DNA of 18,125 nt from Caedimonas varicaedens (GTDB lineage: Bacteria; Pseudomonadota; Alphaproteobacteria; Caedimonadales; Caedimonadaceae): assembly GCA_001192655.1 (NCBI GenBank), contig BBVC01000061.1:1-18125 (forward strand). Direction: 5' to 3'. The translations under genes and the position numbers were made by a program. Shown in pieces: positions 1 through 18,125 of this stretch. The notes beneath the pieces are model-generated. The model was not told the DNA's origin. It ran no database searches and worked only from the letters and a program-made list of their open reading frames with translations. The stretch's first letter is position 1. The number at the start of each line of letters is the position of its first letter.

Positions 1-41
1 ACAGATAAAACACGAAGTCTAAAATCTAATGAATAGGTCAT
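1..41 (-). mobile_element. Possible 5' end of an IS630/Tc1-mariner-like transposase ORF running off the left edge of the window
   Basis: A minus-strand ATG at 41..39 stays open to position 1 and reads MTYSLDFRLRVLS. The xYSLDxRxRV opening is what I know from IS630-family transposase N-termini. Only 13 codons are visible, so this is weak. Confidence 0.3.
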
Positions 42-90
42 GGAATAATCCTCTTAAAAATTATCCATAATATAACCATTTTAAAGGTTT

Positions 91-306
91 TTAGCTATAG
101 AATCCAATATAGGGGTAACATCCCTCCGCAGGACTTTCAATTTTTCTATTTCCTTCCTGAACGCGGTTAAAAGCTTCCCGAATGCTTTTGACGCTGTGAT
201 TATAAAGTTTTTTTAAATGTTCAATGGCATCAGAGGCCGAAGAGAACTCTTGAACAAAGCGAATATAGGTCTCGCCTTCCTGCAGATCATACGATACTTT
301 TTGCAT
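91..306 (-). pseudogene. 71-aa stub resembling the N-terminus of AMP nucleosidase, apparently truncated
   Basis: ORF track 91..306(-). SDAIEHLKKLYNHSVKSIREAF...CYPYIG aligns by eye with the E. coli Amn N-terminus (AQALDKLDALYEQSVVALRNAI...FVYPSL). Full-length Amn is several hundred aa. Here the frame stops after 71 codons, about 50 nt from the putative IS630-like ORF start. Confidence 0.4.
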
Positions 307-437
307 CCCTTTTCCTTTTGCTTTCCGATTTTTATTTTTAATTTAATATCATAACTGATTCTTATGATAAACTTTAATAAAAGTGTTGCATTCCAGCACT
401 ACTTTATCTGAACAGAAGGAATAAGAACGTCACCATC

Positions 438-466
438 TTGACAATGAAGTCGACCATTTTTAACCT
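438..466 (+). promoter_or_regulatory. Candidate sigma70-type promoter for the lipoprotein gene
   Basis: TTGACA at 438..443, a 17-nt spacer, then TAACCT at 461..466 (3/6 match to TATAAT), about 40 nt upstream of the ATG at 505. This is a motif match only. Confidence 0.3.
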
Positions 467-504
467 TACCTGGTGAATACATTATTGAAAAGGAATCATT
501 ATCA

Positions 505-765
505 ATGAAAATAACCCCTCTTTTAACTCTGGTTGCCCTGTTGAATCTTGCGGGATGTGAGTGTATGAAGCCCAACGACCCGAACTGGGATCGTGAGTGT
601 CAGAGAAATTACAGTGAAAACTCCTATGAACTTGCGGCATGTAAGGAAAAAATCGAAAAAAACAAAGATTTCCGTAATGAGGCTGGAACAATCGGCATTG
701 TCCCTGACAATGTCAATCGTCCTGCAACAGATCAACTCCGTAAAGATCACAACGTCGGAAATTAA
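505..765 (+). CDS. Small Cys-rich lipoprotein (86 aa)
   Basis: The N-terminus MKITPLLTLVALLNLAG|C has a classical lipobox (L-A-G-C). The mature part carries further Cys residues (CEC...C...C). A strong intrinsic terminator follows. Confidence 0.65.
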   Translation: MKITPLLTLVALLNLAGCECMKPNDPNWDRECQRNYSENSYELAACKEKIEKNKDFRNEAGTIGIVPDNVNRPATDQLRKDHNVGN

Positions 766-788
766 AAACGCTCTTTATCAAATATCTG

Positions 789-817
789 GAAGGGCAATAT
801 TTGCCCTTCTTTTTTTA
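789..817 (+). terminator. Rho-independent terminator after the lipoprotein gene
   Basis: GAAGGGCAA (789..797), loop TAT, TTGCCCTTC (801..809) form a perfect 9-bp stem, followed directly by a T-run (810..816). Confidence 0.75.
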
Positions 818-841
818 ATCTTTGTACATAAATGAAAAGAG

Positions 842-1768
842 ATGATGACGTTAAAATTAATCAAAAGTCTGTTGATAGGAGCAATTTTGACATTCAATAC
901 AATATCTGTACAAGGAAAAATTATGATCGCTCATAATATGTGCGAGGTTCAAGCTCAAGTTAATAAAGCTCTCAAAAAAAATAGACCTGAAGATATTCTG
1001 GTCGCTTTTGACATTGATATGGTTTTGACACAGCCTGATCATCCTGCCGTTTATTATCCCACCCTTATGAAATATGCAAAGGTCTATAAAAAAATCCTAG
1101 GCTCTCTTTCAGCTGAACAAAAAGATTTTGCGAATACACTTACCACTCAAAATTATCCTCAAAAATTTGTCGAAGAAGAAACTCCAGAAGTCGTTAAAAG
1201 GATTGAGGAAAAGGGTATAAAAGTGATCGCCTTTACAGCAACATTAACGGGGAAATTCAATAATACCAAAGATAAAATTATTGCTCTCAGAAGAGATGGC
1301 CTTCAAAAAAAAGGGCTGGATTTTACAAAATCTTTCAAGGAGTCAGCCCCTGTTATCTCTTTTACAGAGTTTCCTGCATATGCGAACTCATATCCTATGT
1401 TTGACCGGGGTATTCTGTCGTCTAATGGAGAAGGATTTACAACGAAGGGGCAGGTTTTATGTTCTTTTCTACAACATGTTGGCCTTAAACACAGACAACA
1501 AACAGGCAGTCCTGGTTATTTTCCCAAAGTTATCTTTTTAATTGATGACAGAAAGAAAAACCTTGAGGATGTAGAAATAGCTCTTAAATCCTGTAATGAT
1601 TCCATTGAATTTGTAGGACTTGAATATCAGGGCGCCTTTTCTTACGCACCTCAGGATATTTCAGAAGAAGACTTTGAAAAATTTTGGACAGCTTTGGCTG
1701 AAAAATCTCAATCTGCCTTTGATTCTTCACATCAAATTTTGACAGGTTACCAAAGAAATGCACGATAA
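842..1768 (+). CDS. Exported HAD-superfamily-like hydrolase (possibly DUF2608-type), function unknown
   Basis: Signal-peptide-like N-terminus MMTLKLIKSLLIGAILTFNTISVQG. HAD motif I is LVAFDIDMVLT (DxDxV). A motif II-like IAFTAT, a later Lys and a motif IV-like FLIDDRKKNLEDV are also present. The family assignment is from motifs only. Confidence 0.6.
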   Translation: MMTLKLIKSLLIGAILTFNTISVQGKIMIAHNMCEVQAQVNKALKKNRPEDILVAFDIDMVLTQPDHPAVYYPTLMKYAKVYKKILGSLSAEQKDFANTLTTQNYPQKFVEEETPEVVKRIEEKGIKVIAFTATLTGKFNNTKDKIIALRRDGLQKKGLDFTKSFKESAPVISFTEFPAYANSYPMFDRGILSSNGEGFTTKGQVLCSFLQHVGLKHRQQTGSPGYFPKVIFLIDDRKKNLEDVEIALKSCNDSIEFVGLEYQGAFSYAPQDISEEDFEKFWTALAEKSQSAFDSSHQILTGYQRNAR

Positions 1769-2183
1769 TCCTGAACGGAATACTCTGTCTCCTAATTTTT
1801 GCCATAGCGGATTCAAACGCGCTCATGAGCTTGATAATGAAGCCAAAGAGCTTGGCTTTTATTGGCTTCATGCCGAGCAGATCCTCACTCAGATTTCCTC
1901 GGAAACACAGGAAATACGACAAGCCCTTGAGCAAAAAGAATCTTTGGAAAGAGTTACAGAGGAAATCGGAGATCTTCTGCACAGCGTGATGGGACTTTGC
2001 TATTTTCTCAATTTAAGCCCTGAAGCTATTCTCGAAAGTAGTTTGAATAAATTTGAAAAGCGTTTTAGTATAGTGAAAGAATTAATGACTGCCCAAGGAT
2101 TAAAAACCCTCAAGGGGAAAACCCATGAAGCCTTAGCTCTGTGGGAAGAAGCAAAAAAAGCTGGTGCCGCCGGAGAGGATTGA
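1758..2183 (+). CDS. MazG-family nucleoside triphosphate pyrophosphohydrolase (single MazG domain)
   Basis: ELGFYW...ETQEIRQALE...EEIGDLLHSV...NKFEKRF...LWEEAKK matches the MazG pattern (GFDW, EExGDLLF, KFxxRF, WeeaK). The start overlaps the stop of the upstream ORF (ATGCACGATAA). The last 22 nt overlap the tRNA-Thr gene on the opposite strand. Confidence 0.8.
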   Translation: MHDNPERNTLSPNFCHSGFKRAHELDNEAKELGFYWLHAEQILTQISSETQEIRQALEQKESLERVTEEIGDLLHSVMGLCYFLNLSPEAILESSLNKFEKRFSIVKELMTAQGLKTLKGKTHEALALWEEAKKAGAAGED

Positions 2184-2236
2184 ACTCTCGGCCTCACCCT
2201 TACCAAGGGTGTGCTCTACCACTGAGCTACGACGGC
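2162..2236 (-). tRNA. tRNA-Thr (anticodon GGU), CCA encoded
   Basis: The reverse complement folds by hand into a cloverleaf. Acceptor GCCGTCG/CGGCGGC (one G-U pair), D arm GCTC-AGTGGTA-GAGC, anticodon arm CACCC-TTGGTAA-GGGTG, variable loop AGGCC, T arm GAGAG-TTCAATC-CTCTC, then A-CCA. Total 75 nt. Confidence 0.95.
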
Positions 2237-2291
2237 AGACAAATTAAGTGTTAGATTTATACGAAGGCTTATCAAGATTCAAGGTTCAAAA

Positions 2292-2444
2292 ATGGCAGAT
2301 TTGAAAAAAAACCTCAAACTCATAAAAATGCAGCGCCGCGCCCAAGCCCTGCGGGAAAACTTGAGAAAAAGGAAAGCTCAGAAAATGGTGCGTGAGGAAT
2401 CCAAAAACGAAGATACTTCCGACGAAACAGACAATAGCAAATGA
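2292..2444 (+). CDS. Small basic protein (50 aa), conserved-hypothetical type
   Basis: ATG at 2292 to TGA ending at 2444, below the ORF-track cutoff: MADLKKNLKLIKMQRRAQALRENLRKRKAQKMVREESKNEDTSDETDNSK. The AxALRENLRxRKAQ core resembles small conserved proteins I recall from other alphaproteobacteria. It ends 1 nt before the DUF167 start. Confidence 0.5.
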   Translation: MADLKKNLKLIKMQRRAQALRENLRKRKAQKMVREESKNEDTSDETDNSK

Positions 2445-2445
2445 T

Positions 2446-2728
2446 ATGGCGTCAGCTCCTTTTAGTCTCGCTTCACATGGGTTTTATCTTGCTATTTACC
2501 TAACGCCTCATTCAAAACGAAACGCCCTGGGACCTCTTTATTACCGATCCTTCAGGCAAAACTTATCTTCGTGCTTTTGTGACGGCTGTGCCCGAAGATG
2601 GTAAGGCAAACCAGATATTAATCAAGCTTGTCGCCAAGACTATGAAGCTTCTCAAGTCTTCTGTCATGATCGTATCAGGGCACGCCGGTCGTCGTAAGAT
2701 GTTGGAAATTCAAGGTACAACAGATTGA
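2446..2728 (+). pseudogene. DUF167 (YggU-family) gene interrupted by a +1 frameshift
   Basis: The frame from ATG 2446 gives MASAPFSLASHGFYLAIYLTPHSKRNALGPL and then runs into nonsense and a stop at 2604. The next frame gives ITDPSGKTYLRAFVTAVPEDGKANQILIKLVAKTMKLLKSSVMIVSGHAGRRKMLEIQG up to the TGA at 2726..2728. Together these match the DUF167 pattern (xPxAxRN...lkvxvtApPxDGKAN...ksxvxivxGxxsRxK). Removing one T from the TTT at 2537..2539 restores a 93-aa ORF. Confidence 0.75.
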
Positions 2729-2773
2729 TCTGGAAAAGATTAAAAATTTCATTTTTCCTATACTCAAAGGATT

Positions 2774-3100
2774 TTAAAATGTGTACAGGCGGATGAGTGG
2801 TGAGTCTTCACGCAGCGTACATAAAGTACGTAAGCAGGGGCGAATCCCGAAGTCCAACGACCCCAGATTTTGAAAGGCACAGGGTATGAAGGCGGAAGCC
2901 TCAGATGCGGAAACCATCTGACAATATGTTTTGCAACACTGCCGAATAGAGCGCTTATAGCTCACGGATAAGGGCTCTTCAGACTTCACGATCCTCCATA
3001 CCGTCGGAATGGATATACCTGTACGGCGGCTTACTCCTTTGATATTTTCACACTGGCGATATAACCCCCTGATCTTCCTTCGGCTTTCCATAATCAACAT
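2774..3100 (-). mobile_element. Remnant of an IS transposase N-terminal helix-turn-helix (IS21 IstA-like by eye, family unresolved)
   Basis: ESRRKIRGLYRQCENIKGVSRRTGISIPTVWRIVKSEEPLSVSYKR fits the ExRRxIxxLxxxGxSIxxIaRxxGISRxTVxxxlxxxxP...YxR opening of IstA-like transposases. The remaining ~55 codons have no recognisable transposase core (no DDE region), so this is a truncated or decayed copy. Confidence 0.45.
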
Positions 3101-3222
3101 CTCCCCATTTATCTCCTACCTTCTTAATCATCAGCAGAAGTATAATTTGACAAAAATGGATTAACACCAGAGGCGGAATTTATACCTAAAAGGGGGTAAA
3201 ATTTTCAACGCGAATTAAAAAC

Positions 3223-3253
3223 TTGACAGATCTTCCTCAATATGATCTATATA
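3223..3253 (+). promoter_or_regulatory. Candidate promoter for the OTU-like gene
   Basis: Perfect TTGACA at 3223..3228, followed by TCTATA (17-nt spacer) or TATATA (19-nt spacer) around 3246..3253. If used, transcription starts downstream of the first in-frame ATG (3242), which favours ATG 3284 or 3302 as the true start. Confidence 0.35.
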
Positions 3254-3301
3254 AAATATTGTTTATTAAATTCTCATTATAATATGTTAACCTTCTTGAC
3301 A

Positions 3302-4771
3302 ATGTTAAACTCACGTTTTTTATTCGCTTTATTAACTTTTTGTTTTATGCAGCCTCCTGCTTTTGCTTCAAATAGTAAAGATGAGGAAGAAATAGTCGCT
3401 CGTTTCAAGTGTTCTGATAAAGGAGATTTGATAGGAGATGATTACTTTATACGCCGCGAGTTCTATATGACAGGTGACGGTAATTGTTCCTTATACTCTA
3501 TGGGTACAACTTATGCAGAAGCTCACCATCTTTTTCTTGAAAATTCCAATAATCCAATTATTCGTGATTTAGCCCATCAGGAAATTGTGGATGAATTTGA
3601 TAATTTGCACCCTCAAATGAAAAGCAAAGAAAATTATATTGATTTAAAAGATGCTTTGGCAAATATTCACGAGATACTGTCTTATATTCTGATTGATGCT
3701 GTTGAGTATAGGCAGGAGGTGCTTGCTGAGGAAGAGCAAGCAAGGCAAAACATTATCGCTTATGCAAAATTAGAAGAAACCTACAGGGATTATGTAAATT
3801 ACGTACTCATCGATGGGCGTAATATGCTCTTCCGACAAGATGTAGGAAATCATCAAGGTACCTATTTTATTGATGCTCTCGCTTACATTCTCAATAAAAA
3901 CTTAATTATCTGGTCACAAGTTGATGTTATGACCCAACAAATTCTTGCAACCCGCCCGCTTGAGATGGAGTATGATACTCTACTGGTGCGCTCTCATGAG
4001 TATAGGAAAGAGGGAGCCAATGAAACTCTAGAGATTATTCATCGAGGTAACCATTTCAATCGTCTTGTGCGAACAGATAATCAATCGGAATTAGAAAAAG
4101 CTGTGGAAGATGAACGCACTTCTATTGGCTGGCAACTCCAGAAATTTACAGAAGAAAAGTCGCAACTTCAAGCGTTTCTAATAGCATCTGCCAACGAGGA
4201 AGATATCGCTCAATGTTATGATGCATTTATTTTGCCGTTCATCAAAGAACTTGCTTTAAAGGGTATAGTTGATGGCTATTACGCCAAAGCGCCTAATTGG
4301 TCATCTTATGCTGCCTTAAAAAAGGCATTAAAAAGTGAGGCGGGTGTGAATTTTCAGGATCCGGTTAGTCTATTGCGTAGATATCTTCCTGCTGCTGCGA
4401 ATCCTCTCTTTGTCCAATTAGAACCTAAGGCTGGGAAGGAAGAGGCTGAGTGTCAACGTATAGCAGTCCAACAACAGCGTGAGACAGAGGAACAACGTCA
4501 AGCCCGAGCTCAACAGGCAAGACAAATGCTCGCAGAATCAGATCTAGCTCAATTTTATAATGGTTTTGCTATTCCAATCATGAGAGATCTGGTACAACAG
4601 GGTAGATTACATGCGTATTACATAACTGCCCCTGGTTGGTTATCTTATGAAGCATTAAGAGTTACATTCCCAGGTGCCGATTTTAGTGATCCAGTTGTTT
4701 TCTTCCGCAATACCGCCAATCGTCATATTGTTGCGGTCGCTCTCGAGGAGGCACTTTACAACGCCAATTAA
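3302..4771 (+). CDS. OTU-family cysteine protease-like protein with N-terminal signal peptide and a duplicated C-terminal module
   Basis: The longest ORF is 3242..4771, and alternative ATGs lie at 3284 and 3302. From 3302 the N-terminus MLNSRFLFALLTFCFMQPPAFA|SNS looks like a Sec signal peptide. OTU motifs are the Cys loop TGDGNCSLYS (Cys codon 3485..3487), a central GTYFIDALAYILNKNLIIW, and the His loop LEIIHRGNHFNRL (His codon 4052..4054). Two ~60-aa repeats lie at 4202..4384 and 4541..4714. Confidence 0.75.
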   Translation: MLNSRFLFALLTFCFMQPPAFASNSKDEEEIVARFKCSDKGDLIGDDYFIRREFYMTGDGNCSLYSMGTTYAEAHHLFLENSNNPIIRDLAHQEIVDEFDNLHPQMKSKENYIDLKDALANIHEILSYILIDAVEYRQEVLAEEEQARQNIIAYAKLEETYRDYVNYVLIDGRNMLFRQDVGNHQGTYFIDALAYILNKNLIIWSQVDVMTQQILATRPLEMEYDTLLVRSHEYRKEGANETLEIIHRGNHFNRLVRTDNQSELEKAVEDERTSIGWQLQKFTEEKSQLQAFLIASANEEDIAQCYDAFILPFIKELALKGIVDGYYAKAPNWSSYAALKKALKSEAGVNFQDPVSLLRRYLPAAANPLFVQLEPKAGKEEAECQRIAVQQQRETEEQRQARAQQARQMLAESDLAQFYNGFAIPIMRDLVQQGRLHAYYITAPGWLSYEALRVTFPGADFSDPVVFFRNTANRHIVAVALEEALYNAN

Positions 4772-5011
4772 CAACTTTGGGAGACAAACACGTCTGCGGG
4801 CGTCAAGCAGCTCAGCTTTCAATGCTCGGTCGAAGGGTGCGAGGCCAAACTGATCACCCATAATTTCAGTCTTTATTCAGGAAGTCTTCAAGAGGCACGC
4901 TTTCGCCTTTACCCCTATGAGCTGCATACTCATCCGCGGAAAAATTTCAAATCCAGACGATCGTGATATTTTTTGGATATAGGATCGACAAGTTTAAGAG
5001 GAATATTTATT

Positions 5012-5971
5012 TTAAATTTTTAGGCTCGAAACCATGCCTGTTTCAAGTCTTGCCATCTTTCCCATGAATAGCGGTTTATTGACGCGATCATGGCCATATC
5101 CAGGCATTTTAAAAACGGGTACAGAAACACCTGCAGCAAAATATTTTAGGACATACTCAAGTTTAGAAGGATCTTCGGGAGTGTGTTCAGGAGTATAACT
5201 ATAATCTCCAAATAAAATGGCCTCGACGCCGTTAAAAAGTCCAGCTTGTAGAAAATGTTCAAGTCGCTCGGCAATGCGATAGGCTTGCTCATTCACATCT
5301 TCCAAAAAGAGAATTTTTCCTCGACAATCCAGCTGCCAGGACGTTCCGATACTATATTGCAGGACTGAATGATTGCCACCCACAAGAGGCGCTTCGATAA
5401 TGGCGTGTTGTCGAGCAAGATCATTCAAGGGTATGAGATCGGTTTCTTCTATTGCTTTCCTGTAACCTAGCAAAATATCTTTCAATGCTTGCATTGAAGA
5501 AGGTGTAACCCGTTGAGCGACAAGATCGCGTAGATTAGGAGCATGGAGCGTTGGCCAATTCCATTCCTGAATCAAAAATGTATGCAACGCCGTTACGTCA
5601 CTAAAGCCAATGAGAAGTTTTGGTGGAGGGACAGAAGCCAGACTACGTGACCACTCGAAAAGCCTGGGAATCAGGCGTGTTGCTCCGCATCCGCCGCGCA
5701 AGACCCAAACTGCTTTGGAGTGAGATGAGGAAAGCGCCAGAGAAAGATCTTTGAAACGCAATTCATCTTCATTTGAATAAAGGGGGTGAGGGGGCGTCGA
5801 TTCCCAGAAAGGCTGTACATGGGGTACCAGTTCCCACGATTTAAGCAGTTTTATGGATTTTTTAATATCATCCCCGGAAATAGCGCTAGAAGGTGCGACC
5901 AGTTCAACGCGGTCTCCTGGTTTGAGGGTAGGGATGAGGGAGACTTTCCTAACCATCGGCATTTTTGGCAA
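5012..5971 (-). CDS. ldcA: LD-carboxypeptidase (muramoyltetrapeptide carboxypeptidase, peptidase S66)
   Basis: S66 hallmarks are present: VLRGGCGATRL (cf. RGGYG), IGFSDVTALH (nucleophile Ser), LFLEDVNEQAYRIAERL (Glu), and PGYGHDRVNKPLFMG (His). The 5971 start is a TTG, with ATG alternatives at 5962 and 5956. Every option overlaps the atpC stop. Confidence 0.85.
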   Translation of the reverse strand: MPKMPMVRKVSLIPTLKPGDRVELVAPSSAISGDDIKKSIKLLKSWELVPHVQPFWESTPPHPLYSNEDELRFKDLSLALSSSHSKAVWVLRGGCGATRLIPRLFEWSRSLASVPPPKLLIGFSDVTALHTFLIQEWNWPTLHAPNLRDLVAQRVTPSSMQALKDILLGYRKAIEETDLIPLNDLARQHAIIEAPLVGGNHSVLQYSIGTSWQLDCRGKILFLEDVNEQAYRIAERLEHFLQAGLFNGVEAILFGDYSYTPEHTPEDPSKLEYVLKYFAAGVSVPVFKMPGYGHDRVNKPLFMGKMARLETGMVSSLKI

Positions 5972-6365
5972 TAATCTGGAGTTTTATGTTGGCAAGATGT
6001 AAATCGCGGTGCAACGCTTCCTTCTCTTCCGTGGAACGGGCGATTTCCAGTTCTTCAAGTTTTTCTCTGATTATGCTTTCAAGCTCTGTCTTATCAAAAT
6101 CCTGTAGAAAGATACAATCTTCTGCCATCACAGTGCAACCATTCTCATTCACATTTGCAAATCCGCTTCCCACATAAATTCGATGAAGGATAGCCCCATC
6201 CTGGTAAATATAAACAAGTCCGGGTCTTAAAGTTGAAAGGAGTGAAGCATGACGGGGCAATACACCGAAATCGCCTTCTTGTCCTGGAATGACCGCCATG
6301 CTGACAGGAGCTTCAAACACCAGCTTTTCGGGAGAAACAAGCCTAAAATCCAATTTATCTGTCAT
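5949..6365 (-). CDS. atpC: F1 ATP synthase epsilon subunit
   Basis: 138 aa. FRLVSPEKLVFEAPVSMAVIPGQEGDFGVLPRHASLLSTLRPG is the typical epsilon N-terminal beta-sandwich signature. It is the last gene of the atpHAGDC order. Confidence 0.9.
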   Translation of the reverse strand: MTDKLDFRLVSPEKLVFEAPVSMAVIPGQEGDFGVLPRHASLLSTLRPGLVYIYQDGAILHRIYVGSGFANVNENGCTVMAEDCIFLQDFDKTELESIIREKLEELEIARSTEEKEALHRDLHLANIKLQIIAKNADG

Positions 6366-6379
6366 TCGGGTTGCCTATC

Positions 6380-7825
<1,446 letters not shown>

Positions 7826-8713
7826 TTAAAGCGCTTCGGCGCCTGAAACAATCTCAATAAGCTCTTTGGTAATAAAAGCCTGACGTGTTCTATTATAGGT
7901 TAAATCAAGATTTTGAATCATTTCTTCTGCGTTACGGGTTGCGCCATCCATTGCCGCCATTCTTGCACCTTGCTCACTGGCAACATTTTCCAGTAAAGCT
8001 CTAAAGATTTGGATCCTCAGATTTTGAGGTAAAAGTTGCGTCAAGACCTGGTTTTCCGTTGGTTCATAACAATAAGGTACAAGAGATTTGTTGTTCTCAG
8101 CGGACAATAAGAGCGAAGAATCAAGAGGCGTATAAGGAATCAAACGATGATCTGTTACTTTTTGTGTAAGGGCAGAAATAAACTTGTTATAAACAATTGT
8201 ACAGATATCAAATTCATTTTTTTCAAATATTTCAAGCATGTATTGTGATACGTTGGAAGCATCAGAAAAAGACGGCTTATCGAGAGCCTCGAAAGTCGTG
8301 ATAATATATTTTGAGTAGTCCCGCTTAAGTTGGTCATATCCCTTGCGGCCTATGCAAATGATCTTAATATCCCGCTTACGTGTTTCTTCTTCCTGAATCA
8401 TATGACGAACATGTCGAATAATGGATGTATTAAACCCGCCACAAAGTCCTCGATTTGATGTTGCTGCAATGATAAGATGCGTTTTTTCCTGTCCTGTCCC
8501 GCCGAGAAGTTTCGGTGTCATGCTGGAGTTGGTTATTCTTGAAATAAGATCACCCAACATTTCTGACATCATCATCGCATAAGGACGCGCGGCCTGGGCG
8601 TGTTCCTGTGCGCGGCGCAGTTTGGCAGCTGCAATCAATTTCATTGCGGACGTAATTTTTTTTGTTGCTTGAACCGATTTCTTGCGTGTCCGTAATTCCT
8701 TAAGACTTGGCAT
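7826..8713 (-). CDS. atpG: F1 ATP synthase gamma subunit
   Basis: 295 aa. N-terminal MPSLKELRTRKKSVQATKKITSAMKLIAAAKLRRAQ and C-terminal ITKELIEIVSGAEAL are gamma-subunit hallmarks. It is positioned between atpA and atpD. Confidence 0.95.
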   Translation of the reverse strand: MPSLKELRTRKKSVQATKKITSAMKLIAAAKLRRAQEHAQAARPYAMMMSEMLGDLISRITNSSMTPKLLGGTGQEKTHLIIAATSNRGLCGGFNTSIIRHVRHMIQEEETRKRDIKIICIGRKGYDQLKRDYSKYIITTFEALDKPSFSDASNVSQYMLEIFEKNEFDICTIVYNKFISALTQKVTDHRLIPYTPLDSSLLLSAENNKSLVPYCYEPTENQVLTQLLPQNLRIQIFRALLENVASEQGARMAAMDGATRNAEEMIQNLDLTYNRTRQAFITKELIEIVSGAEAL

Positions 8714-8734
8714 TTTGGAGTGACCTACCCTTGT

Positions 8735-10264
8735 TTAAGTAAAAATAGTGGTAAAGTGTTCAAGAAATTTAACCAGTTCTCCTTCATGCTGGGTGGAAAT
8801 CTGCCCTGTCTCTTTGATCGTTTGTAAAAGGGCAGGTTTTCTCTGACGCAATTCTGTAAACATTTCCTGCTCGTAACGTTGAATATCCGCAACGGGAACC
8901 TTATCTAAATACCCTCGTGTTCCGCAGAAAATCGAAACAACCTGCTCTTCCCGAGATACAGGAGAATACTGGGGCTGTTTCAAAAGTTCTGTCAGCCTCT
9001 CGCCGCGCGCAAGCAGTTTTTGGGTGGCAAGATCAAGATCAGAAGAAAATTGTGAGAAGGCTGCCATTTCCCGAAATTGAGCCAACTCCAGTTTGATCTT
9101 GCCGGCGACTTGCCTCATGGCTTTTGTTTGAGCAGCGGATCCCACACGGCTTACGGATAAGCCCACATTAATGGCGGGGCGGACACCTTTATGAAATAAA
9201 TCTGTTTCAAGAAAGATTTGTCCGTCTGTGATGGAAATCACATTGGTAGGGATATAGGCTGAGACGTCACCAGCTTGCGTTTCAATAATAGGAAGAGCTG
9301 TCAGCGATCCTCCTCCCTTTTCATCACTCATTTTAGCCGCTCGTTCCAGCAGCCGGGAATGAAGATAGAAAACGTCTCCAGGATAGGCTTCACGTCCAGG
9401 AGGGCGGCGCAAAAGCAACGACATTTGACGATAGGCTACTGCCTGCTTTGAAAGGTCATCATAAATAATCAGGGCATGCATGCCGTTATCACGAAAGTAT
9501 TCACCCATGGAACATCCCGCATAGGGCGCCAGGAATTGCAGGGGAGCCGGATCAGAAGCTGAGGCAACCACAACCGTCGTATAGCCCAGTGCTCCATGGA
9601 CTTCCAACGTCTTGACGATTTGGGCGACGGTTGATAGTTTTTGACCAATGGCAACATAGATGCAATAAAGCTTTTCCGATTCTGTACCGCCATCATGCGC
9701 ATTTTTCTGATTGAGGATTGTGTCAATAGCGATAGCTGTTTTTCCTGTTTGACGATCACCGATGATAAGCTCGCGTTGTCCTCGTCCAATAGGTACAAGC
9801 GTATCAATCGCTTTCAGCCCTGTCTGCATGGGTTCGCAAACTGACTGACGCGGGATAATGCCAGGAGCCTTGACTTCTACGCGGGAACGTAAGGTAGTTT
9901 TGATCTCTCCTTTGCCATCCAATGGATTTCCAAGGGGATCGACGACGCGACCTAACAATTCCTTCCCAACCGGCACATCCACAATGTTCCCCAGCCTTTT
10001 AACGCTTTCTCCTTCCCGAATATTTCGATCATTCCCAAAAATCACAATACCCACATTATCGGTTTCAAGGTTTAGCGCCATTCCCTGAGTGCCATCGGAG
10101 AATTCAACCATTTCTCCGGACTGGATATGTTCAAGCCCATAAACCCGTGCAATGCCATCGCCGACTTCCAGGACTTGCCCTACTTCAGCAAATTCAGTCT
10201 CAGCATTAAAATTCACAATTTTTTTCTTTAAAATAGAAGAAATTTCCGCAGCGCGTAGTTCCAT
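8735..10264 (-). CDS. atpA: F1 ATP synthase alpha subunit
   Basis: 509 aa. Walker A GDRQTGKT, and the overall alpha-subunit sequence character throughout. Confidence 0.98.
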
Positions 10265-10269
10265 CGGTT

Positions 10270-10803
10270 TTATGCCCTCATCGCTTTTTGCAGTTTATGG
10301 AGTTGTGTCCGGATCGTCGAATCAACGACATATTCGCCAATTTGGATGACAATGCCCCCTATGGCTTCTTTATCTCTTTTTTCATGAATAACAATTTCTT
10401 TTTTCAGCTTTGATTTTAAGAGGCTTGTTAAGGATTTCAGCTGATTTGTACCAAGGGGCATTGCTGAAGAAATGTGAACGTCCACTCTATTGGATTGAGC
10501 ACGAAGCAAGTCTCTAAAACGCTTTATAATATCGCTCAGATTTTTTAGTCTTTTCTGATGAGCAACCAAGTCAAGAAAATTTAGAGTCAATGGGCAGAAT
10601 AACAACTTTTCGGATAACACTCTAAAAACGACTGTGACAGCTTTTAAAGGGATCAGGGGATTGTCCAGAAATGTGTTAAAATCTTTTGAAGTGGAGACAA
10701 TATTCTGAAGTGCAGCAAGATCTTGCTCTACCTCATCCAGTTTTTCTTGTTCAGAGGCGCATTCAAACAAGGCCTGGGCATATCGTACTGCAATTATACT
10801 CAT
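10270..10803 (-). CDS. atpH: F1 ATP synthase delta (OSCP) subunit
   Basis: OSCP-type N-terminus [14 protein letters not shown]. The ORF track extends to 10833, but the ATG at 10803 has a GGGGG RBS 7 nt upstream. It is the first gene of atpHAGDC. Confidence 0.88.
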
Positions 10804-11006
10804 CCATGAACCCCCGGAATGCTTGAAATACAAGCTTTTTCATTTCTCCAGAAATTTATTCTGTTTTTCAGATGTTTCTAGCACGACTTCAAACATTCAG
10901 CAAGAATGATGTGCTATTTGCTCTTTTTTGCACTGTGGTTTGCATGGATTTTCTTTTTGTGGTTTTCTATAAAACCTAAAGCATCGAAAGAAGTATAGAA
11001 AAGAAA

Positions 11007-12422
11007 ATGAAGTTTATCATATTTTTGTGGAGCATCTTTTTTTCTTCTATACTCTATGCAATTCCCATGAATGATAAAAGTGGTCTTAGCCTAACTGAAG
11101 TAGATCAAATCATTAAAATTTCTGAAAACTCAAGTATTGAGGTGCTGCAAAAAGTTATTAGAGAGGCAAGAAAAAACAACCAGAAGGTTACTGTTTATGG
11201 ATCTCAACATACTCAAGGAGGGCACATATTTTATAATCAGGGGATCATTCTGAATTTATCTAATCTAAATAATATTCAAAGACTTTCTCAAAATATTATA
11301 CGCGTTCAATCAGGAGCGACATGGAAACAAGTGATTGAATTCTTAAATCCTCTGGGGTTGTCTGTGGATATTATGCAATCAGATTATGATTTTAGTATGG
11401 GCGGGACTCTTTCAACAAATGTTCATGGATGGCAGGTTAATAAACCGCCTCTTATTGCAAGCATACGGGGTTTCCATATTCTTATGGCAGATGGAAGTGT
11501 ACGATATTGTAATCGTCAGAAAAACACAGATCTTTTTAAAAGCGTTATTGGTGGTTACGGACTTTTAGGCGTTATTATTGATGTTGATTTGCATGTGATC
11601 CATAACCATCTGTATGAACTAAAACAATGGGTTATTAAGACAGAAGATTTTCTTCCTTTTTTTAAAAAAGAAGTGCAAGGCAATAAAAAAGCAGCCATGT
11701 TTTTTGGAAGATTTTCTCTTGATCGCAAAAATTTTTTAAGGAAAATAGCTTTTCGTATTTATGAAGATACAGAACAACAGGCAAAAAATCAGAAACTTTC
11801 TGAATATCGTTGGGTACAAAGTATTTTAAACTGGTTTTTTTCTAAAACGCGCAAGAGCGATTTTTTAAAAAAAGTGAGATGGGAAATCGAAAATAATTTT
11901 TTAGCGGAGCGATTATTCAAATCACTCTCACGTAATCAACTTTTGTACCATTCTGTTGATAATTATATAAATACTCAAGAAGGGTATACAGATTTATTGC
12001 AGGAATATTTTATTCCTATTGAAAATTTTGAGAAATTTATTTTTTCCCTTCGTTCTCTGGAAAAAGACATGTCAGATTATTTAATGAATATTACAATTCG
12101 TCATGTGCAAAAAGATAATGAAAGTCTTTTGAACTATGCTCCCCAAGAAATGGTGTGTTTTGTCATGTTCTTCCGTGGCCCCAAAACGAAAGATTTTGAC
12201 AGAAAGCTGAGTCTTATGGCTCAAAAAATGACGGATCAGGCTTTGGTATTAAAAGGCTCTTATTATCTTCCTTATCGCCCTTATCAAAGTAAACAACAAT
12301 TTGAAAAAGCCTATCCTCGATGGAGAGAATTCAAGAATATAAAATTAATTTATGATTCTTCAGAAGTATTTTTCAATCAATTTTATGAGAATTATTTTGG
12401 TGAAAAATTAAAGCAGGATTAA
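11007..12422 (+). CDS. Exported FAD-binding (PCMH/FAD_binding_4-type) oxidoreductase, substrate unknown
   Basis: 471 aa. Hydrophobic signal-like N-terminus MKFIIFLWSIFFSSILYA. FAD-binding motifs are VYGSQHTQGGH and ADGSVRYCNRQKNTDLFKSVIGGYGLLGVI. The gene is visibly AT- and Lys-rich relative to the flanking operons. Confidence 0.7.
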   Translation: MKFIIFLWSIFFSSILYAIPMNDKSGLSLTEVDQIIKISENSSIEVLQKVIREARKNNQKVTVYGSQHTQGGHIFYNQGIILNLSNLNNIQRLSQNIIRVQSGATWKQVIEFLNPLGLSVDIMQSDYDFSMGGTLSTNVHGWQVNKPPLIASIRGFHILMADGSVRYCNRQKNTDLFKSVIGGYGLLGVIIDVDLHVIHNHLYELKQWVIKTEDFLPFFKKEVQGNKKAAMFFGRFSLDRKNFLRKIAFRIYEDTEQQAKNQKLSEYRWVQSILNWFFSKTRKSDFLKKVRWEIENNFLAERLFKSLSRNQLLYHSVDNYINTQEGYTDLLQEYFIPIENFEKFIFSLRSLEKDMSDYLMNITIRHVQKDNESLLNYAPQEMVCFVMFFRGPKTKDFDRKLSLMAQKMTDQALVLKGSYYLPYRPYQSKQQFEKAYPRWREFKNIKLIYDSSEVFFNQFYENYFGEKLKQD

Positions 12423-12499
12423 ATAATATATTATCAAAATCAAATGGTTGATGTGATAGATAAACAGGAACCATTTTCCTCGGACAATTACTTAATGCA

Positions 12500-12853
12500 C
12501 TAAATAGTAAGCCATGTGGTTTCATTATTTGGAAAAACAATAGAAATAACCCCACCCCACGCACACGGAACCATTGATAAGTTATCCAGCGCAGGCATGC
12601 CATTTATTAAAACGGTAGGATCGCCGATCATCCATGGAGAAACAGGTGCTGGCATACAAGGAATAGGAAGGCCTACTTCTGACAATATTGCGCAAATCCC
12701 CATAGGCGTAAGATTAAGATCAGGAACAACATCCATGAAGTGACCAGCCGGCATAGCCTGAACAAGGACATTTACTTCAGGCAAAGCGTCAAACATCAGC
12801 ATAGATTCACCACCCGCACACATCAAGAAACCACCCGTAACTGTTTCAAGCAT
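12500..12853 (-). CDS. DUF4280 (PAAR-like) domain protein
   Basis: 117 aa. LMCAGGE...MPAGHFMDVVPDLNLTPMGICA...PCMPAPVSPWMIGDPTVLINGMPALDNLSMVPCAWGGVISI follows the DUF4280 pattern I know (C-x-G, N-I-x-P-F-G-x-C, P-C-x-P, W, G-x-P-A-L, C-x-W-G-G-x-I), including four conserved Cys. An AGGGGA RBS lies 8 nt upstream. The start is 24 nt after the petC stop. Confidence 0.8.
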   Translation of the reverse strand: MLETVTGGFLMCAGGESMLMFDALPEVNVLVQAMPAGHFMDVVPDLNLTPMGICAILSEVGLPIPCMPAPVSPWMIGDPTVLINGMPALDNLSMVPCAWGGVISIVFPNNETTWLTI

Positions 12854-12877
12854 AAAATATCCCCTTTATACCCTGTT

Positions 12878-13642
12878 TTATTTTTTGAGGTTACGCCATG
12901 TTCTTCTCATCACAATATACATCATGATTGTAAAAAGCGCGAGAAAGCTCAAGACTTTTACACCCATTCTTTTGCGTTCTTCCAGGGTGGGTTCTGCTGC
13001 CCAGGCCAGGAAAGTAACCACATCATGCGCCATTTGCTCGACTGTTGAAGGCGTCCCATCCGCATACTTTACCTGCCCTGGAGACAAAGGGGGCGCCATG
13101 GCAATCTGATGCCCCGGGAAATAAGTATTATAATACATACCATTCGCCATCTTCATATCTTGTGGGGGATTTGTATAACCTGTCAACAAGGCTTTCACAT
13201 AATCAGCTTCATGCTTGCGTGCCTTTACAACGAGGGATTGGTCTGGGGGATAAGCGCCATTGTTCGCAGCACGTGCTGCTTTCTCATTGGGAAAAGGTTT
13301 GACAAAATGATCTTCAGGCTTTCCCGGTCTTTTGGTTGGATTGCCTTCATCGTCCAATGGGCCGGGGACTTCATGTTGCGAGGCAATCACCTTAATTTGG
13401 GCTTCGGTATAGCCAAGGTCTTTCAAGTTTTCATATCGTAAATGATCAAGCGCATGACAGGTTGAGCAGACTTCCTGATAAACCTGAAATCCTCGCTGCA
13501 ATGCTCCGCGATCAAAGGTTCCCAAAGGGCTTTCAAAACTCCATTGATTATGAGGTGGCTGTACCTCTTGTTCTGCTTTTGTTCCTGTTCCTGTTCCACA
13601 AGTCAACCAATAGACAAGAATACCCAGAAAAATTTTATTCAT
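12878..13642 (-). CDS. petC: Cytochrome c1 of the bc1 complex
   Basis: 254 aa. Signal sequence, heme-binding CSTCH, and a C-terminal membrane anchor ([16 protein letters not shown]). The start overlaps the petB stop (ATGA). Confidence 0.92.
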
Positions 13643-14883
13643 GAGTGTTTTTCCTTTTTTCCTGTTTCAATATCCAAAAGGCTTACAGGCAAGGGAAGAG
13701 AGCATTCAAATTTTGAAAGCCCAGGCAAAACAACAAGAAAATGAAAAAAATAGTAAAAAGTTGCGACGCGTCCAATGAATAATGGCCATCCTTCTGGTTG
13801 CTGGGATCCAACCCAGACCAAAGTAAAACAGGTCAACAGCAACAGGACATAAAAGAGTTTGAAAAAAGGACGAAAGCGCCCGCTGCGTACAGGATGCTTG
13901 TCCAGCCACGGCACAATAAAAAGGATAAAAATTGACCCAAACATCAATATGACTCCACCCAATTTATCCGGCACTGAACGTAAAATCGCATAAAAAGGTA
14001 GGAAATACCATTCAGGAACAATATGTGGCGGTGTCACAAGAGGATTAGCGGGAATATAATTATCAGGCTCACCAAAGAAATTGGGAGCAAAGAAAATAAA
14101 ACCACTCCAAATTAAAAGAAATATACCTAGTCCAAATAAGTCCTTAACCGTGTAATAAGGGTGAAAGGGGATAGATTCTTCGGGTTTCGTTCGTTCAATG
14201 CCCAAAGGGTTGTTTGAACCAAAAGTATGAAGGGCGATAAGATGCAAACCTACAACAGCAATAATCAGAAAGGGAAAAAGATAGTGCAGAGCAAAAAAAC
14301 GGTTCAGTGTAGGATTGTCAACAGAAAATCCTCCCCAAAGCCATGTAACAATACTATCTCCTACAAAAGGAATAGCTGAAAATAAATTGGTGATGACGGT
14401 TGCGCCCCAATAGCTCATCTGCCCCCAGGGCAGGACATACCCCATAAAAGCCGTTGCCATCATAAGCAGTAAAATAACGACACCTAAAATCCATAAAAGC
14501 TCACGGGGTGATTTATAGGAACCATAAAAAAGACCCCGAAAAATATGAATGTAAACAACAATAAAAAACATTGAAGCGCCATTCATATGGATATAACGAA
14601 TAAGCCAGCCATAGTTTACTTCACGCATGATGTGCTCGACGCTATCAAAGGCCATATCAACTTGTGGTGTGTAGTGCATCGCCAGGAAAATTCCTGTAAC
14701 AATCATAATAACCAGCGTAATGCCGGCAAGAGACCCAAAATTCCATAAATAATTCAGATTAAGTGGCGTTGGATACTCTCCCAATTCTTTTTTTATAAAC
14801 GAGAAAAAAGGCAATCTTTCATCAATCCAACCTATCAATCCCTTAAAGGATGTCGTTGGTTTATGGATGGTTTTTTTATTCAT
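13639..14883 (-). CDS. petB: Cytochrome b of the bc1 complex
   Basis: 414 aa polytopic membrane protein with WNFGSL, conserved His-containing helices and the [13 protein letters not shown] motif. Confidence 0.97.
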
Positions 14884-14892
14884 CTGTCTCTC

Positions 14893-15462
14893 CTAACCAA
14901 CGCGAATCGTCGTATCATTCAGAAAAGTATAGGGGGGAACCTCAAGATTGCGGGGAGCAGGTCCTCGTCGCACACGTCCCGAAATATCATATTCTGATCC
15001 ATGGCAGGGACAAAGCCATCCCCCATATTCACCTTTATTATCAGTTGGTTTTTGTCCCAGAGGGACGCATCCCAAATGTGTGCATACACCAACCACAACA
15101 AGCCATTGAGGATGGGTTTTAAACCGATCTTGGTCTGTTTGGGGGTCAAGAAGATCTTTCAAGGGAACGGAACGCGCCGTCTGAATTTCTTTTTCAGTTC
15201 TGCGGCGGATAAAAAGAGGTTTGCCACGCCAGAGAACAGTAATAGCTTGACCTTCTGCTACAGGCTTTAAATTTATTTCTATAGTCGAAGCTGCAAGAAC
15301 GTCGCGCGCAGGATTCATGGACTTGATCAAAGGATAAATAAACGAACCGACTCCAACAGCACCCAAGGCACCTGTTGCCAAGATAAGAAAATCACGCCGA
15401 TTTTTTTGAGGTGACACCTTTTTTTTGTTTGCAGCGATATTAGACTCAAGGATGGTCGTCAT
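14893..15462 (-). CDS. petA: Rieske iron-sulfur subunit of the bc1 complex
   Basis: 189 aa. Twin-arginine motif NRRDFL and Rieske boxes CTHLGC and CPCHGS. Confidence 0.95.
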
Positions 15463-15624
15463 TTTTTTACGCGTGTCTCCCTTTTATTTAAAAATTTCTA
15501 TATTCCTTTTACCATTGAACGATCATCAGGTGTAGGTATTTTCTCAAGCTTTTTTATTTTCATACCTGAAAATCTCGAAAAACTTTGAGATAACAAAAAG
15601 ATTGAACCTTTGTATTTTGGATGC

Positions 15625-15644
15625 TTAGTCCCCTTGAGTAATGG
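15625..15644. repeat. Left terminal inverted repeat of the IS481-like remnant
   Basis: TTAGTCCCCTTGAGTAATGG, the inverted partner of 15937..15957. Confidence 0.8.
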
Positions 15645-15675
15645 GCTATAACAATTTGGTGAGGATGGTCTAATT

Positions 15676-15909
15676 ATGGGACAGATATTACACAAGCGCG
15701 CCACGACGACGCACACCACATCCCTGGACAACAAGGGTGAGCACATGAACGAAGCTCCCCTATCAAGACCTATCACTATGGAGACAAGCGAGCGCTTGAA
15801 AAGACATCTTTATGACTTTGTGAATTCTTACAATTATGCTAAAAAACTGAAAATAATCAAAACCTTAACACCAATGGGGAAAATTATTCAGGAAGGAATA
15901 GATAAATAA
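15676..15909 (+). pseudogene. IS481-family transposase remnant (N-terminal ~13 aa fused to C-terminal ~40 aa)
   Basis: MGQILHKRATTT matches the MGQVLHGSATTTEAVRR start of IS481-type transposases I recall. ETSERLKRHLYDFVNSYNYAKKLKIIKTLTP matches their C-terminal HxxLxxHLxxFvxaYNfarRLKtLrGLTP. The DDE catalytic core is missing entirely. Confidence 0.75.
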
Positions 15910-15936
15910 ACCTAGCTTGTTTCACTCAAACCCATT

Positions 15937-15957
15937 CCATTTACTCAAGAGGACTAA
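15937..15957. repeat. Right terminal inverted repeat of the IS481-like remnant
   Basis: CCATTTACTCAAGAGGACTAA. It overlaps the last codons and stop of the minus-strand ORF 15941..17884. Confidence 0.8.
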
Positions 15958-17884
15958 CACCCAGGCTTTTAGAATAATTCAGCAAAATCGGATTATAGCC
16001 TTTCTTTTCCAATATGTTCTTAATTATTTCCTCGACAAGTTTTTTTCTACCCTGCTGTATCTGCCAATCAAAATAAGGAAATATCAAATCTACGCGCGGA
16101 TACCATTGTTGAGTGAGTATAGAAAGTCGCTTTTCCCACCACCGGTGATGTAACAACATTTCTTTTAAGCTATTCAATCTTGGATCCTGGGTTTGATTCA
16201 TTAAAAAATCATATAGAGGTAATTCTGAAGAAAGCATTACCAGGCTAGGATTTTTTATTTTCTGAGAGGCATATAAAAGATTGTGTAAAACTTTAATATC
16301 TACCGAGTTCAAAGAAGGATGAGAATGCACACTCTCTAGGAAATCCCTCAGGAAAATAGCGAGATAAATTCCACCAGGACCGGAGCTTTGCAAATAATCT
16401 TGTACAGTTATACTCAGTGTTTTTTCTTGATTGTTACTCGAAAATTTTTCGTGAACCGTATCAAAACACAAATTAAAATAGATAAGGGATAATCCAAAGA
16501 CTAATAAAATGACTGAAATGCAAGCTAGAGAAAATTGAAAAAAGTACTTAAAATTAGTTTTTTTTAGAGAAATATTAGGGCTTACAGCAGCCAGAAAGAT
16601 TGCTAAATATGGCAGTGTTCCGGGTATTTCATACCACCCAGAAAATGTAAAACTTAAAGCAGCACAACAAAATGTCATCGAAGGAATTTTAGACTTTTGG
16701 CATAGTAAAACTGGTAGAATTAGAAGCGCTGAAAATAGAATTGCGCCTGGAATTCCACACGAAATTAATGTTTCAATTAATTGGTTATGACTATGAAAAC
16801 CTACATTGCCTATCAGAAGATTATTGATCCCAAGCCCTATTTCGCTCCAATTTTGTGGAAAGGATTGATAAGGTAAAAATATTTCTGAGGAATGATGAAG
16901 AAAATCTGACCTTATTATTTGTATAGGCATATTATGAATGCTAGATAGTATGATATCGGTATAGGATCCCCAACCAAATCCGACTAATAACCTGAAGGGA
17001 TCGTTAATGAGAGCGTCAATACAAACGCGCCAAAAATGATATCTCGCATGGAGTGAAAATAGAAAAAAGTCAGATGATATATACTTGGCTATCAAATAAA
17101 CAAAAGGTGAAATTAGAAAAATAAAAGCTGCAAAAAAATAACGTGAGTAAACTGAGATAAAATTTTCTTTTTTATTTATATAATATGCTATCCCATATAA
17201 GAAAGTTCCAATCGCAATACCAATAAAAGCAGTTCTATTTGTTGACGCTATAATTATTAAAATCCCTAAAAAAAGGAGTATTTTTTTATAAACTTTACTA
17301 TCTAATGAGAACCCAATTCCCATTAGGGATATACCAATAAATACAATATGTTCATTTATGAAATAAGGTGTTCCCTTGAATTGGGGAATGAGACCATGTC
17401 TAATGTCTCCAATAAAAGATAGGCAACAAATTGTAAAGGAGGCGACGATTACATTAGTTATAAAAACCCCTAAATACTTTGAATTCAGCGCTAGCTTATA
17501 ACCAATAATCATAACACTTAAAATAATATACCATATGATTCCCATTCCTATTTGAGGAGAGCCAGTCCATGAAAGCCAAGGGACATATGAAAAAAAAGAA
17601 GCAATGAAAGACCATACAGTAATACCCAAACATATAATTGACGCATAGTTAAGGGCTGGGGAAAATTTTTCTTGATCCTCAGAAAGTGAGCATAAGCATA
17701 GCCCAACAGAAAGGAAAAAAGATACTGAAACAAGGCTTATAAAGGGGGGTTGACCATAAGGCCAAGGACTAAATTTCATTAGTGGAGCAGAAAGCATAAT
17801 CCAAGGTAATGTAAAGCAAGAAAATAACAAAAGTTGCCGAGGGAAGTTTCCTGTTGCTCTATTAAGAAACTTTAAAAAAAACAT
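15941..17884 (-). CDS. O-antigen ligase / Wzy_C-family polytopic membrane protein with a C-terminal soluble extension
   Basis: 647 aa with many hydrophobic helices. Wzy_C-type motifs are STNRTAFIG, HARYHFWRVCIDALINDPFRLLVGFGWGSY and GFHSHNQLIETLISCGIPGAILF. The C-terminal ~170 aa are hydrophilic and helical. The final residues SPLE plus the stop are encoded inside the IS481-like right inverted repeat. Confidence 0.8.
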   Translation of the reverse strand: MFFLKFLNRATGNFPRQLLLFSCFTLPWIMLSAPLMKFSPWPYGQPPFISLVSVSFFLSVGLCLCSLSEDQEKFSPALNYASIICLGITVWSFIASFFSYVPWLSWTGSPQIGMGIIWYIILSVMIIGYKLALNSKYLGVFITNVIVASFTICCLSFIGDIRHGLIPQFKGTPYFINEHIVFIGISLMGIGFSLDSKVYKKILLFLGILIIIASTNRTAFIGIAIGTFLYGIAYYINKKENFISVYSRYFFAAFIFLISPFVYLIAKYISSDFFLFSLHARYHFWRVCIDALINDPFRLLVGFGWGSYTDIILSSIHNMPIQIIRSDFLHHSSEIFLPYQSFPQNWSEIGLGINNLLIGNVGFHSHNQLIETLISCGIPGAILFSALLILPVLLCQKSKIPSMTFCCAALSFTFSGWYEIPGTLPYLAIFLAAVSPNISLKKTNFKYFFQFSLACISVILLVFGLSLIYFNLCFDTVHEKFSSNNQEKTLSITVQDYLQSSGPGGIYLAIFLRDFLESVHSHPSLNSVDIKVLHNLLYASQKIKNPSLVMLSSELPLYDFLMNQTQDPRLNSLKEMLLHHRWWEKRLSILTQQWYPRVDLIFPYFDWQIQQGRKKLVEEIIKNILEKKGYNPILLNYSKSLGVSPLE

Positions 17885-18125
17885 ATCCCGACGATCCTGA
17901 AAAAGTAGGAAAAATAAAAAATTAACAGCCCAACTCTTGGAGATGCTGAAGGAATTATCTTGAATAAATTAATAACTCAAAAATTCCCTCAGCAAACGGT
18001 AGAAAAAACCACCAACCTCAAAATATCATATTTAGTCTTTTAAACAGAGGGGGTAAGGTGGGGTGTTTACAGAACAAATTTAGTACCCTGCGCTGTGATC
18101 ATGGTTTACACCATGCCCACCATAG

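Follow-up and report, generated by a model that had tools for sequence, protein, structure and literature searches.

What is a PAAR-like gene doing behind the genes of the cytochrome bc1 complex? The question is raised by an 18,125-nt stretch of DNA from Caedimonas varicaedens (contig BBVC01000061.1, positions 1 to 18,125; hereafter the window), whose minus strand carries, in this order, petA, petB, petC, TAA-aacagggtataaaggggatatttt-ATG and a stand-alone DUF4280 ORF (Table 1). An earlier, sequence-only reading of the window had offered two answers: either a contractile system encoded elsewhere relies on a tip protein that is expressed from a housekeeping operon, or the fold has a different, undescribed role in this lineage. 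Its description of the locus is largely borne out. The ORF starts 24 nt past the petC stop, the spacer letters are exactly as quoted, and a Shine-Dalgarno-like (SD-like) sequence precedes the start codon, as expected of a gene with its own ribosome-binding site (RBS). The extent of 12500 to 12877 given there needs amendment, since the ORF itself spans 12500..12853 on the minus strand and the higher end point takes in the spacer. The GC and GC3 values of the gene (0.446 and 0.364, respectively) lie inside the ranges of petA, petB and petC (0.40-0.46 and 0.35-0.41) and are also in line with those of the atp genes, consistent with the statement that its base composition resembles that of its neighbours. 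Finally, a Pfam scan of 13 ORFs of the window matched none of them to a type VI secretion system (T6SS), eCIS, toxin or immunity family, in agreement with the claim that these 18 kb contain no spike, sheath, toxin or immunity gene.

Table 1 Features of the petABC-DUF4280 locus in the window, and genomic settings of the orthologous genes
Feature	Position	Strand	Remarks
petA (Rieske Fe-S subunit)	14893..15462	(-)	Pfam UCR_Fe-S_N and Rieske; opens the predicted petA-petB-petC-DUF4280 unit
petB (cytochrome b)	13639..14883	(-)	Pfam Cytochrome_B and Cytochrom_B_C
petC (cytochrome c1)	12878..13642	(-)	Pfam Cytochrom_C1, E 2.2e-95; directly upstream of the DUF4280 gene, same orientation
petC-DUF4280 spacer, 24 nt	12854..12877	(-)	SD-like AAAGGGGA 6 nt before the ATG; no hairpin terminator
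Stand-alone DUF4280 (PAAR-like) gene	12500..12853	(-)	117 aa, ATG start; Pfam PF14107
Candidate sigma-70-like promoter TTGATT-16-CATAAT	15833..15860	(-)	In the 478-nt gap upstream of petA; weak consensus match
Weak A/U-rich stem-loop AAAUGGUU...AACCAUUU, then GAUUUUGAU	12442..12476	(-)	z -1.61, alone not significant
petC-linked lineages			Window and strains L001-L003; L004; L007/L008; L011/L012; L013; L014; L017
Unlinked lineage L005/L006			DUF4280 gene 320 nt downstream of a divergent FYDLN_acid gene
Unlinked lineage L009/L010			DUF4280 gene between a response regulator and an SDF transporter
Unlinked lineage L022			DUF4280 gene after a small HTH gene

The DUF4280 ORF is a real gene under strong purifying selection. 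Its product matches Pfam DUF4280 (PF14107) over profile positions 2-106 of 109 with an E-value of 5.9e-16 and 59.5 bits, against a gathering cut-off of 26.3 bits, and 7/7 orthologues of the first alignment match the family too; the lack of a profile match, which had been named as a way in which the assignment might fail, did not occur. The pattern formed by C12, C54, C66 and C97 of this 117-aa protein, already recognized in the sequence-only reading, is confirmed by Pfam and by the alignments: all four cysteines are invariant in the seven orthologues first aligned and are found in the three added later, and a wider set of 120 DUF4280 proteins shows no variation at C54, C66 and C97 and at least 90% conservation at C12. 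Across genera, the seven-orthologue alignment has 40 invariant columns, including a clade-specific C-terminal FPNNE(T/S) motif. Pairwise dN/dS between the orthologue lineages ranges from 0.07 to 0.31 with synonymous sites that are mostly saturated, the sole unsaturated inter-lineage pair (L011/L014) giving 0.094, and the reading frame is intact in 10/10 lineages, so that the disruption in relatives that could have spoken against the gene is not seen.

This conservation bears on the idea that the gene is the left-over tip of a machine since lost, kept only through its place inside an essential operon or for some minor role. Such a relic would suit the lack of T6SS genes nearby, the count of 0 RNA-seq reads for CPBP_01201, the homologue in Ca. 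Bodocaedibacter vickermanii (PMC8163844), and the richness of endosymbiont genomes in decaying genes, of which the neighbouring FAD oxidase, split in strain L002, is an example. The low dN/dS values, the invariant columns and the uninterrupted frames do not form a relic pattern, and the three copies that have been relocated away from petABC are equally conserved; we consider this explanation very unlikely.

In addition to being its only Pfam match, DUF4280 sets the window protein apart from canonical PAAR proteins: PAAR_motif (PF05488) is not matched by it and only marginally by two of the seven orthologues (E 0.038), and the canonical PAAR motifs and His3Cys zinc site are not present, the protein having a single histidine (H38) and four cysteines. 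NCBIfam and PHROGs returned no match, no homology to a bc1 subunit or assembly factor was detected, and neither a signal peptide nor a membrane anchor is apparent on reading the sequence. The same combination of features is known from Francisella IglG, a member of the same Pfam family that is devoid of canonical PAAR motifs, carries Cys4 in place of the His3Cys zinc site and is predicted to be a VgrG-capping cone; its four equivalent cysteines bind Fe/Zn, and each of them is needed for T6SS secretion (PMC5014421; also PMC5349215). By analogy, the four cysteines of the window protein are expected to hold a metal ion. The two proteins differ in that IglG has an N-terminal α-helical extension of its own, which binds IglF, and is encoded in the Francisella pathogenicity island (PMC5014421, PMC5349215), whereas the window protein is a bare 117-aa domain whose gene lies in a respiratory operon.

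An AF2 model built from 120 family sequences (pLDDT 87.4, pTM 0.80; an alignment of the seven clade sequences had yielded a pLDDT of only 31.4, hence the deeper input) predicts a PAAR-like conical β fold that is closest to a VgrG-bound PAAR-like domain. The top match in a Foldseek search of the PDB was 9jg8_B, the N-terminal PAAR-like domain of BtpeA on the Bacteroides VgrG spike (TM 0.72, rmsd 2.6 Å), followed by 9jg9_B, c1882 (4jiw_D), VCA0105 (4jiv_D), T4 gp5.4 (4ku0_D) and the phage P1 and KP1 tips; matches below these P1/KP1 baseplate tips are noise. 9jg8_B was also retrieved from sequence by a family profile, with all four cysteines aligned, and the cone match, combined with the PF14107 score, upholds the DUF4280/PAAR-like identity first proposed from the sequence. 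Likeness to the BtpeA/Bfe5 domain (9jg8, 9jg9) extends over 115 columns; unlike the window protein, that domain is fused to a 608-aa effector, requires the adaptor BtapC and belongs to a Bacteroidota T6SS-iii, and sequence identity is only 19%. Canonical PAAR proteins (PF05488; VCA0105, 4jiv; c1882, 4jiw) share the cone fold (TMt 0.58-0.68) and cap the VgrG β-helix, the role that model and analogy ascribe to the window protein as well, but differ from it by their PAAR motifs and by their His3Cys site, its own putative metal ligands being Cys4.

Since PAAR folds also cap phage spikes, and the model matches T4 gp5.4 and the P1 and KP1 tips, the protein might alternatively be the tip or adaptor of another contractile injection machine encoded elsewhere, such as an eCIS, a tailocin or a prophage tail; PAAR homologues have been described for T6SS as well as for eCIS (PMC8651086). 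A fold search of viral predicted structures (BFVD) gave matches to phage PAAR/COG4104 proteins that are only weak, all of them weaker than E 0.009, and PHROGs, as mentioned above, gave none. Set against the T6SS DUF4280 domain that is the best structural match, the T6SS loci that surround the nearest relatives with examined context (see below) and the fact that two papers on Holosporales (PMC11909080, PMC8163844) describe T6SS but no eCIS, this possibility appears improbable.

How the gene is expressed can be approached through the signals around it. Neither the spacer nor the 3' portion of petC contains a terminator-like hairpin or a sigma-70-like site according to consensus scans, and the spacer does not fold better than its shuffles (z -0.87), in keeping with the earlier remark that it contains no hairpin. 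DUF4280 as an independent unit, with a preceding terminator or an internal promoter, was considered and set aside, as neither element was found, although consensus scans are weak evidence. With the short spacers of linked relatives, these results make the co-transcription with petABC that had been called likely a plausible one, and a petA-petB-petC-DUF4280 transcript is the simplest prediction from the consensus scans. Upstream of petA, the promoter candidate of Table 1 lies in a region whose number of promoter-like sites is not above shuffle expectation; downstream, the weak stem-loop, located in the 77-nt convergent gap past the DUF4280 stop, is a possible transcript end.

Orthologues of the window protein form a compact clade. 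A word-indexed search of 5.8 billion proteins recovered ten orthologue lineages that are 59-73% identical and score at least 175 bits, whereas generic DUF4280 proteins outside the clade reach at most 90 bits. An exhaustive HMMER search of 1.84 billion cluster representatives returned a single representative below E 1e-30, which indicates that all members of the clade fall within one 50%-identity cluster, and clade-profile searches yielded only two loci among genome contigs and only a self-identical contig among metagenome contigs. One orthologue, 71% identical, is from a Caedimonas sp. MAG (Holosporales, Caedimonadaceae; L014), and the PetB protein of the window is about 75% identical to those of Ca. 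Odyssella acanthamoebae and of a Paracaedibacteraceae MAG.

Whether the linkage to petC is kept in relatives, a question posed by the sequence-only reading, can be answered in the affirmative: in seven of the ten lineages the DUF4280 gene comes directly after petC, separated from it by 9-26 nt, and most of these linked copies are preceded by a recognizable SD-like purine run. By contrast, the outer flanks, upstream of petA and downstream of DUF4280, differ in every linked lineage and vary even among strains with 98-100% identical proteins. In a neighbour-joining (NJ) tree rooted on T6SS-linked outgroups, either branch of the basal split has petC-linked members; the subclade of L004, L007, L009 and P0008 has a bootstrap value of 88.5% and the remaining nodes are poorly supported. 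By parsimony on this tree, we infer an ancestral linkage with two or more losses. Its presence on both sides of the split marks the gene as an old resident and thus sustains the earlier judgement that it is not a recent arrival. An adjacency retained in 7/10 lineages across saturated synonymous divergence is also more persistent than pure chance suggests.

Association with petABC is nonetheless not obligatory. In three of the ten lineages the gene is unlinked and preceded by 55-320 nt of intergenic DNA (Table 1), yet its sequence is equally conserved, so that the pet context is not needed by the protein. A separate observation concerns P0276, a more distant 115-aa DUF4280 protein that is 41% identical and also starts with MLET, and P0173, a PetB protein that is 74% identical: for each, the longest NCBI contig measures exactly 58,482 bp and, if this is one and the same contig, the two may extend the pet-DUF4280 association to another lineage.

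The conserved placement invites the explanation that the clade has gained a bc1-linked function, as a cytoplasmic accessory, assembly or metal-handling factor, and for this reason stays in the petABC operon. Adjacency to petC on both sides of the basal split amid scrambled outer flanks agrees with it, as does the distinctness in sequence of a clade that fits in a single 50%-identity cluster and is recognizable by its FPNNE motif and by a Cys2-Cys3 loop that is shortened relative to the T6SS-linked outgroups. The loop was also considered by itself as a sign of new function and rejected in this capacity, because other DUF4280 proteins of 115-120 aa have short Cys2-Cys3 loops too. Several further points argue against a bc1 role: both the predicted fold and the arrangement of the cysteines match a cone that caps VgrG; away from petABC, the gene has stayed intact and conserved in three lineages; the sequence of the window protein shows neither a signal peptide nor a membrane anchor on reading, while c1 and Rieske domains are located in the periplasm; and a related orthogroup tracks T6SS among Holosporales and is not found in the Midichloriaceae compared, which are respiring Rickettsiales. 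We regard a bc1 function as highly improbable. No greater weight can be given to the wider proposal that the petABC-DUF4280 operon reflects functional coupling of either kind, with tip supply tied to respiratory expression or with the Cys4 cone as a bc1 partner. Were the former true, the supply of a single-use spike tip would follow how metabolically active or infective the endosymbiont is; under the bolder latter form, the Cys4 cone would have been co-opted within the clade as a cytoplasmic partner of bc1.

Outside the clade, the two nearest relatives with examined context (37-41% identity) both lie within canonical T6SS loci. One, from a Nitrosomonas MAG (L018), belongs to a tssE-tssF-tssG-clpV-vgrG-DUF4123-DUF4280-...-EndoU toxin array and the other stands beside tssK-tssL-tssM-tssA-tssB-tssC, which suggests that the clade descends from ordinary T6SS tip proteins. 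Such stand-alone DUF4280 proteins of T6SS-i loci, about 129 aa in length, share with the window protein the four cysteines and the PW..G.PTV..G.PAL...C.WGG core; they differ from it in the position of their genes, after vgrG and DUF4123 and before toxin genes, in a Cys2-Cys3 loop that is longer by about 12 residues and in ending with PGQ, compared to PNNE in the clade.

Closer to the window lineage, a 2025 review states that nearly all Holosporales sequenced to date have retained a T6SS, even those with the smallest genomes, Holospora being the exception, and that the system is probably non-standard (PMC11909080); the core genes occupy four or more separate loci (PMC8163844). In Ca. Bodocaedibacter vickermanii, of the same order, the single-domain DUF4280 protein CPBP_01201 has been listed as a T6SS component, its gene lying at a distance from all other T6SS loci (PMC8163844 Suppl. 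Table 3). The corresponding OrthoMCL group is represented in 7/7 non-Holospora Holosporales, 0/4 Holospora and 0/2 Midichloriaceae compared (PMC8163844), its members besides CPBP_01201 coming from two Paracaedibacter, Odyssella thessalonicensis, Ca. Caedibacter acanthamoebae, Caedibacter (Caedimonas) varicaedens and UBA6184 (PMC8163844 Suppl. Table 5). The distribution of this orthogroup, of which the window clade is a putative member, matches that of T6SS and not that of the bc1 complex. The C. varicaedens protein of the group is GAO98473.1; proteins of the window clade measure 117-119 aa, 117 aa in the window itself, as opposed to 130 aa for CPBP_01201. Because T6SS is near-universal in Holosporales and its genes are scattered, a lone DUF4280 gene is much less surprising than first thought.

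Taken together, these observations are probably best explained if the window protein serves as spike tip to a T6SS whose dispersed genes lie elsewhere in the genome, and is itself expressed as the fourth cistron of petABC by transcriptional hitch-hiking. A stand-alone PAAR-like cone, with its four cysteines arranged around a metal ion, would cap the blunt end of the VgrG trimer and thereby constitute the T6SS tip, while the remaining machine (tssBC-hcp, tssFG, tssKLMA and vgrG) would be encoded at several other genome sites, a dispersal typical of Caedimonadaceae, Paracaedibacteraceae and Bodocaedibacteraceae. In the window lineage, the tip gene would have lost, or never possessed, a promoter of its own; as the fourth petABC cistron it would depend on a promoter ahead of petA for transcription and on its own RBS for translation. 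The adjacency probably persists because a promoterless gene located 9-26 nt after petC can hardly be moved without losing expression, so that the link to respiration would amount to locked-in hitch-hiking without any shared biochemical function. Metal binding, VgrG capping, co-transcription and a T6SS in the very genome that carries the window are all presumed in this scenario, the last by analogy with relatives.

Of the two answers offered at the outset, reliance on a contractile system elsewhere is thus largely favoured, given the scattered T6SS of Holosporales and the lone DUF4280 protein already counted among its parts; a different, undescribed role is disfavoured, as adjacency is its sole support and three lineages are unlinked. 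Against the spike-tip explanation stand several facts: neither the window nor the orthologue flanks, up to 10 kb, contain vgrG, adaptor, effector or core genes of a T6SS-type neighbourhood, the clade is well apart in score from other DUF4280 proteins, CPBP_01201 had 0 RNA-seq reads, and the adjacency to petC persists more than chance would suggest. The bc1 role, the other contractile machine and the relic jointly take up about a quarter of the probability.

The T6SS of Holosporales is regarded as a key, possibly non-standard, machine by which these protist endosymbionts interact with their hosts, and the main text of the searchable papers on it does not discuss the spike tip. If read correctly, the DUF4280 gene supplies the spike-tip slot for Caedimonas-like lineages and, if so, T6SS genes disperse so far that the tip gene is transcribed with a respiratory operon. 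In practical terms, searches for T6SS components in rearranging endosymbiont genomes cannot rest on neighbourhood. The scattered Holosporales T6SS and a lone DUF4280 protein as part of it were known already, and what seems new is the conserved placement after petC: searches of the open literature turned up neither a petC-DUF4280 linkage nor a mention of PAAR together with the Holosporales T6SS, so that the linkage in Caedimonas-like lineages appears to be undescribed, albeit as a modest curiosity. It is best read as an example of operon hitch-hiking that helps annotation and indicates no new kind of system or new biochemistry.

Several other features of the locus deserve mention. The petB and petC genes are separate but overlapping in the window; in the Caedimonas MAG a single fbcH-type ORF of about 666 aa (L014 7983-9983) joins cytochrome b to c1, and the fusion recurs in several close PetB homologues (P0158, P0161, P0166 and others). 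Convergent with the DUF4280 gene, the FAD-linked oxidase gene at 11007-12422 (+) (FAD_binding_4 and a weak ALO match) has a GC of 0.32 and a GC3 of 0.26, compared to a GC of 0.40-0.47 for the pet and atp genes. It consists of two ORFs in strain L002 and is not found at this position in other genera, so that it was probably inserted later and is now decaying in part of the strains.

At 3242-4771 (+), the window encodes a 509-aa protein without Pfam or PDB sequence match, whose C-terminal part contains a repeat with 39% identity over 61 aa. We take its N-terminus to be signal-peptide-like and its GDGNCSLYS and HRGNHF motifs to be reminiscent of OTU-type cysteine proteases; it is a possible secreted, host-targeting effector. 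At the place of this gene, a sister contig has a different one, with a weak Peptidase_C1 match, followed by a TPR-secretin. The gene at 842-1768 (+) codes for a DUF2608 protein with an N-terminal signal-like segment, of which the assembly collection contains no exact record; behind it comes the gene of a small pyrophosphohydrolase of the MazG type. tRNA-Thr(GGT) at 2162-2236 (-) overlaps this MazG-like ORF at its 3' end, a tRNA being the only Rfam hit in the window. No convincing gene occupies the adjacent region, 2237-3240, which is probably an IS remnant: it includes only a 108-aa ORF (2774-3100, (-)) that resembles an ISL3-type transposase HTH below the Pfam cut-off.

A petABC-DUF4280-FADox-atpHAGDC-S66 peptidase block is kept in the window and in strains L001-L003. 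Its flanks (window 1-5000 and 15500-18125) include a Wzy_C ligase-like gene in the window, IS110 and DDE transposases in L001, and ribonucleotide reductase and a HAD hydrolase in L002/L003; flanks so unlike among strains whose proteins are 98-100% identical indicate very active rearrangement.
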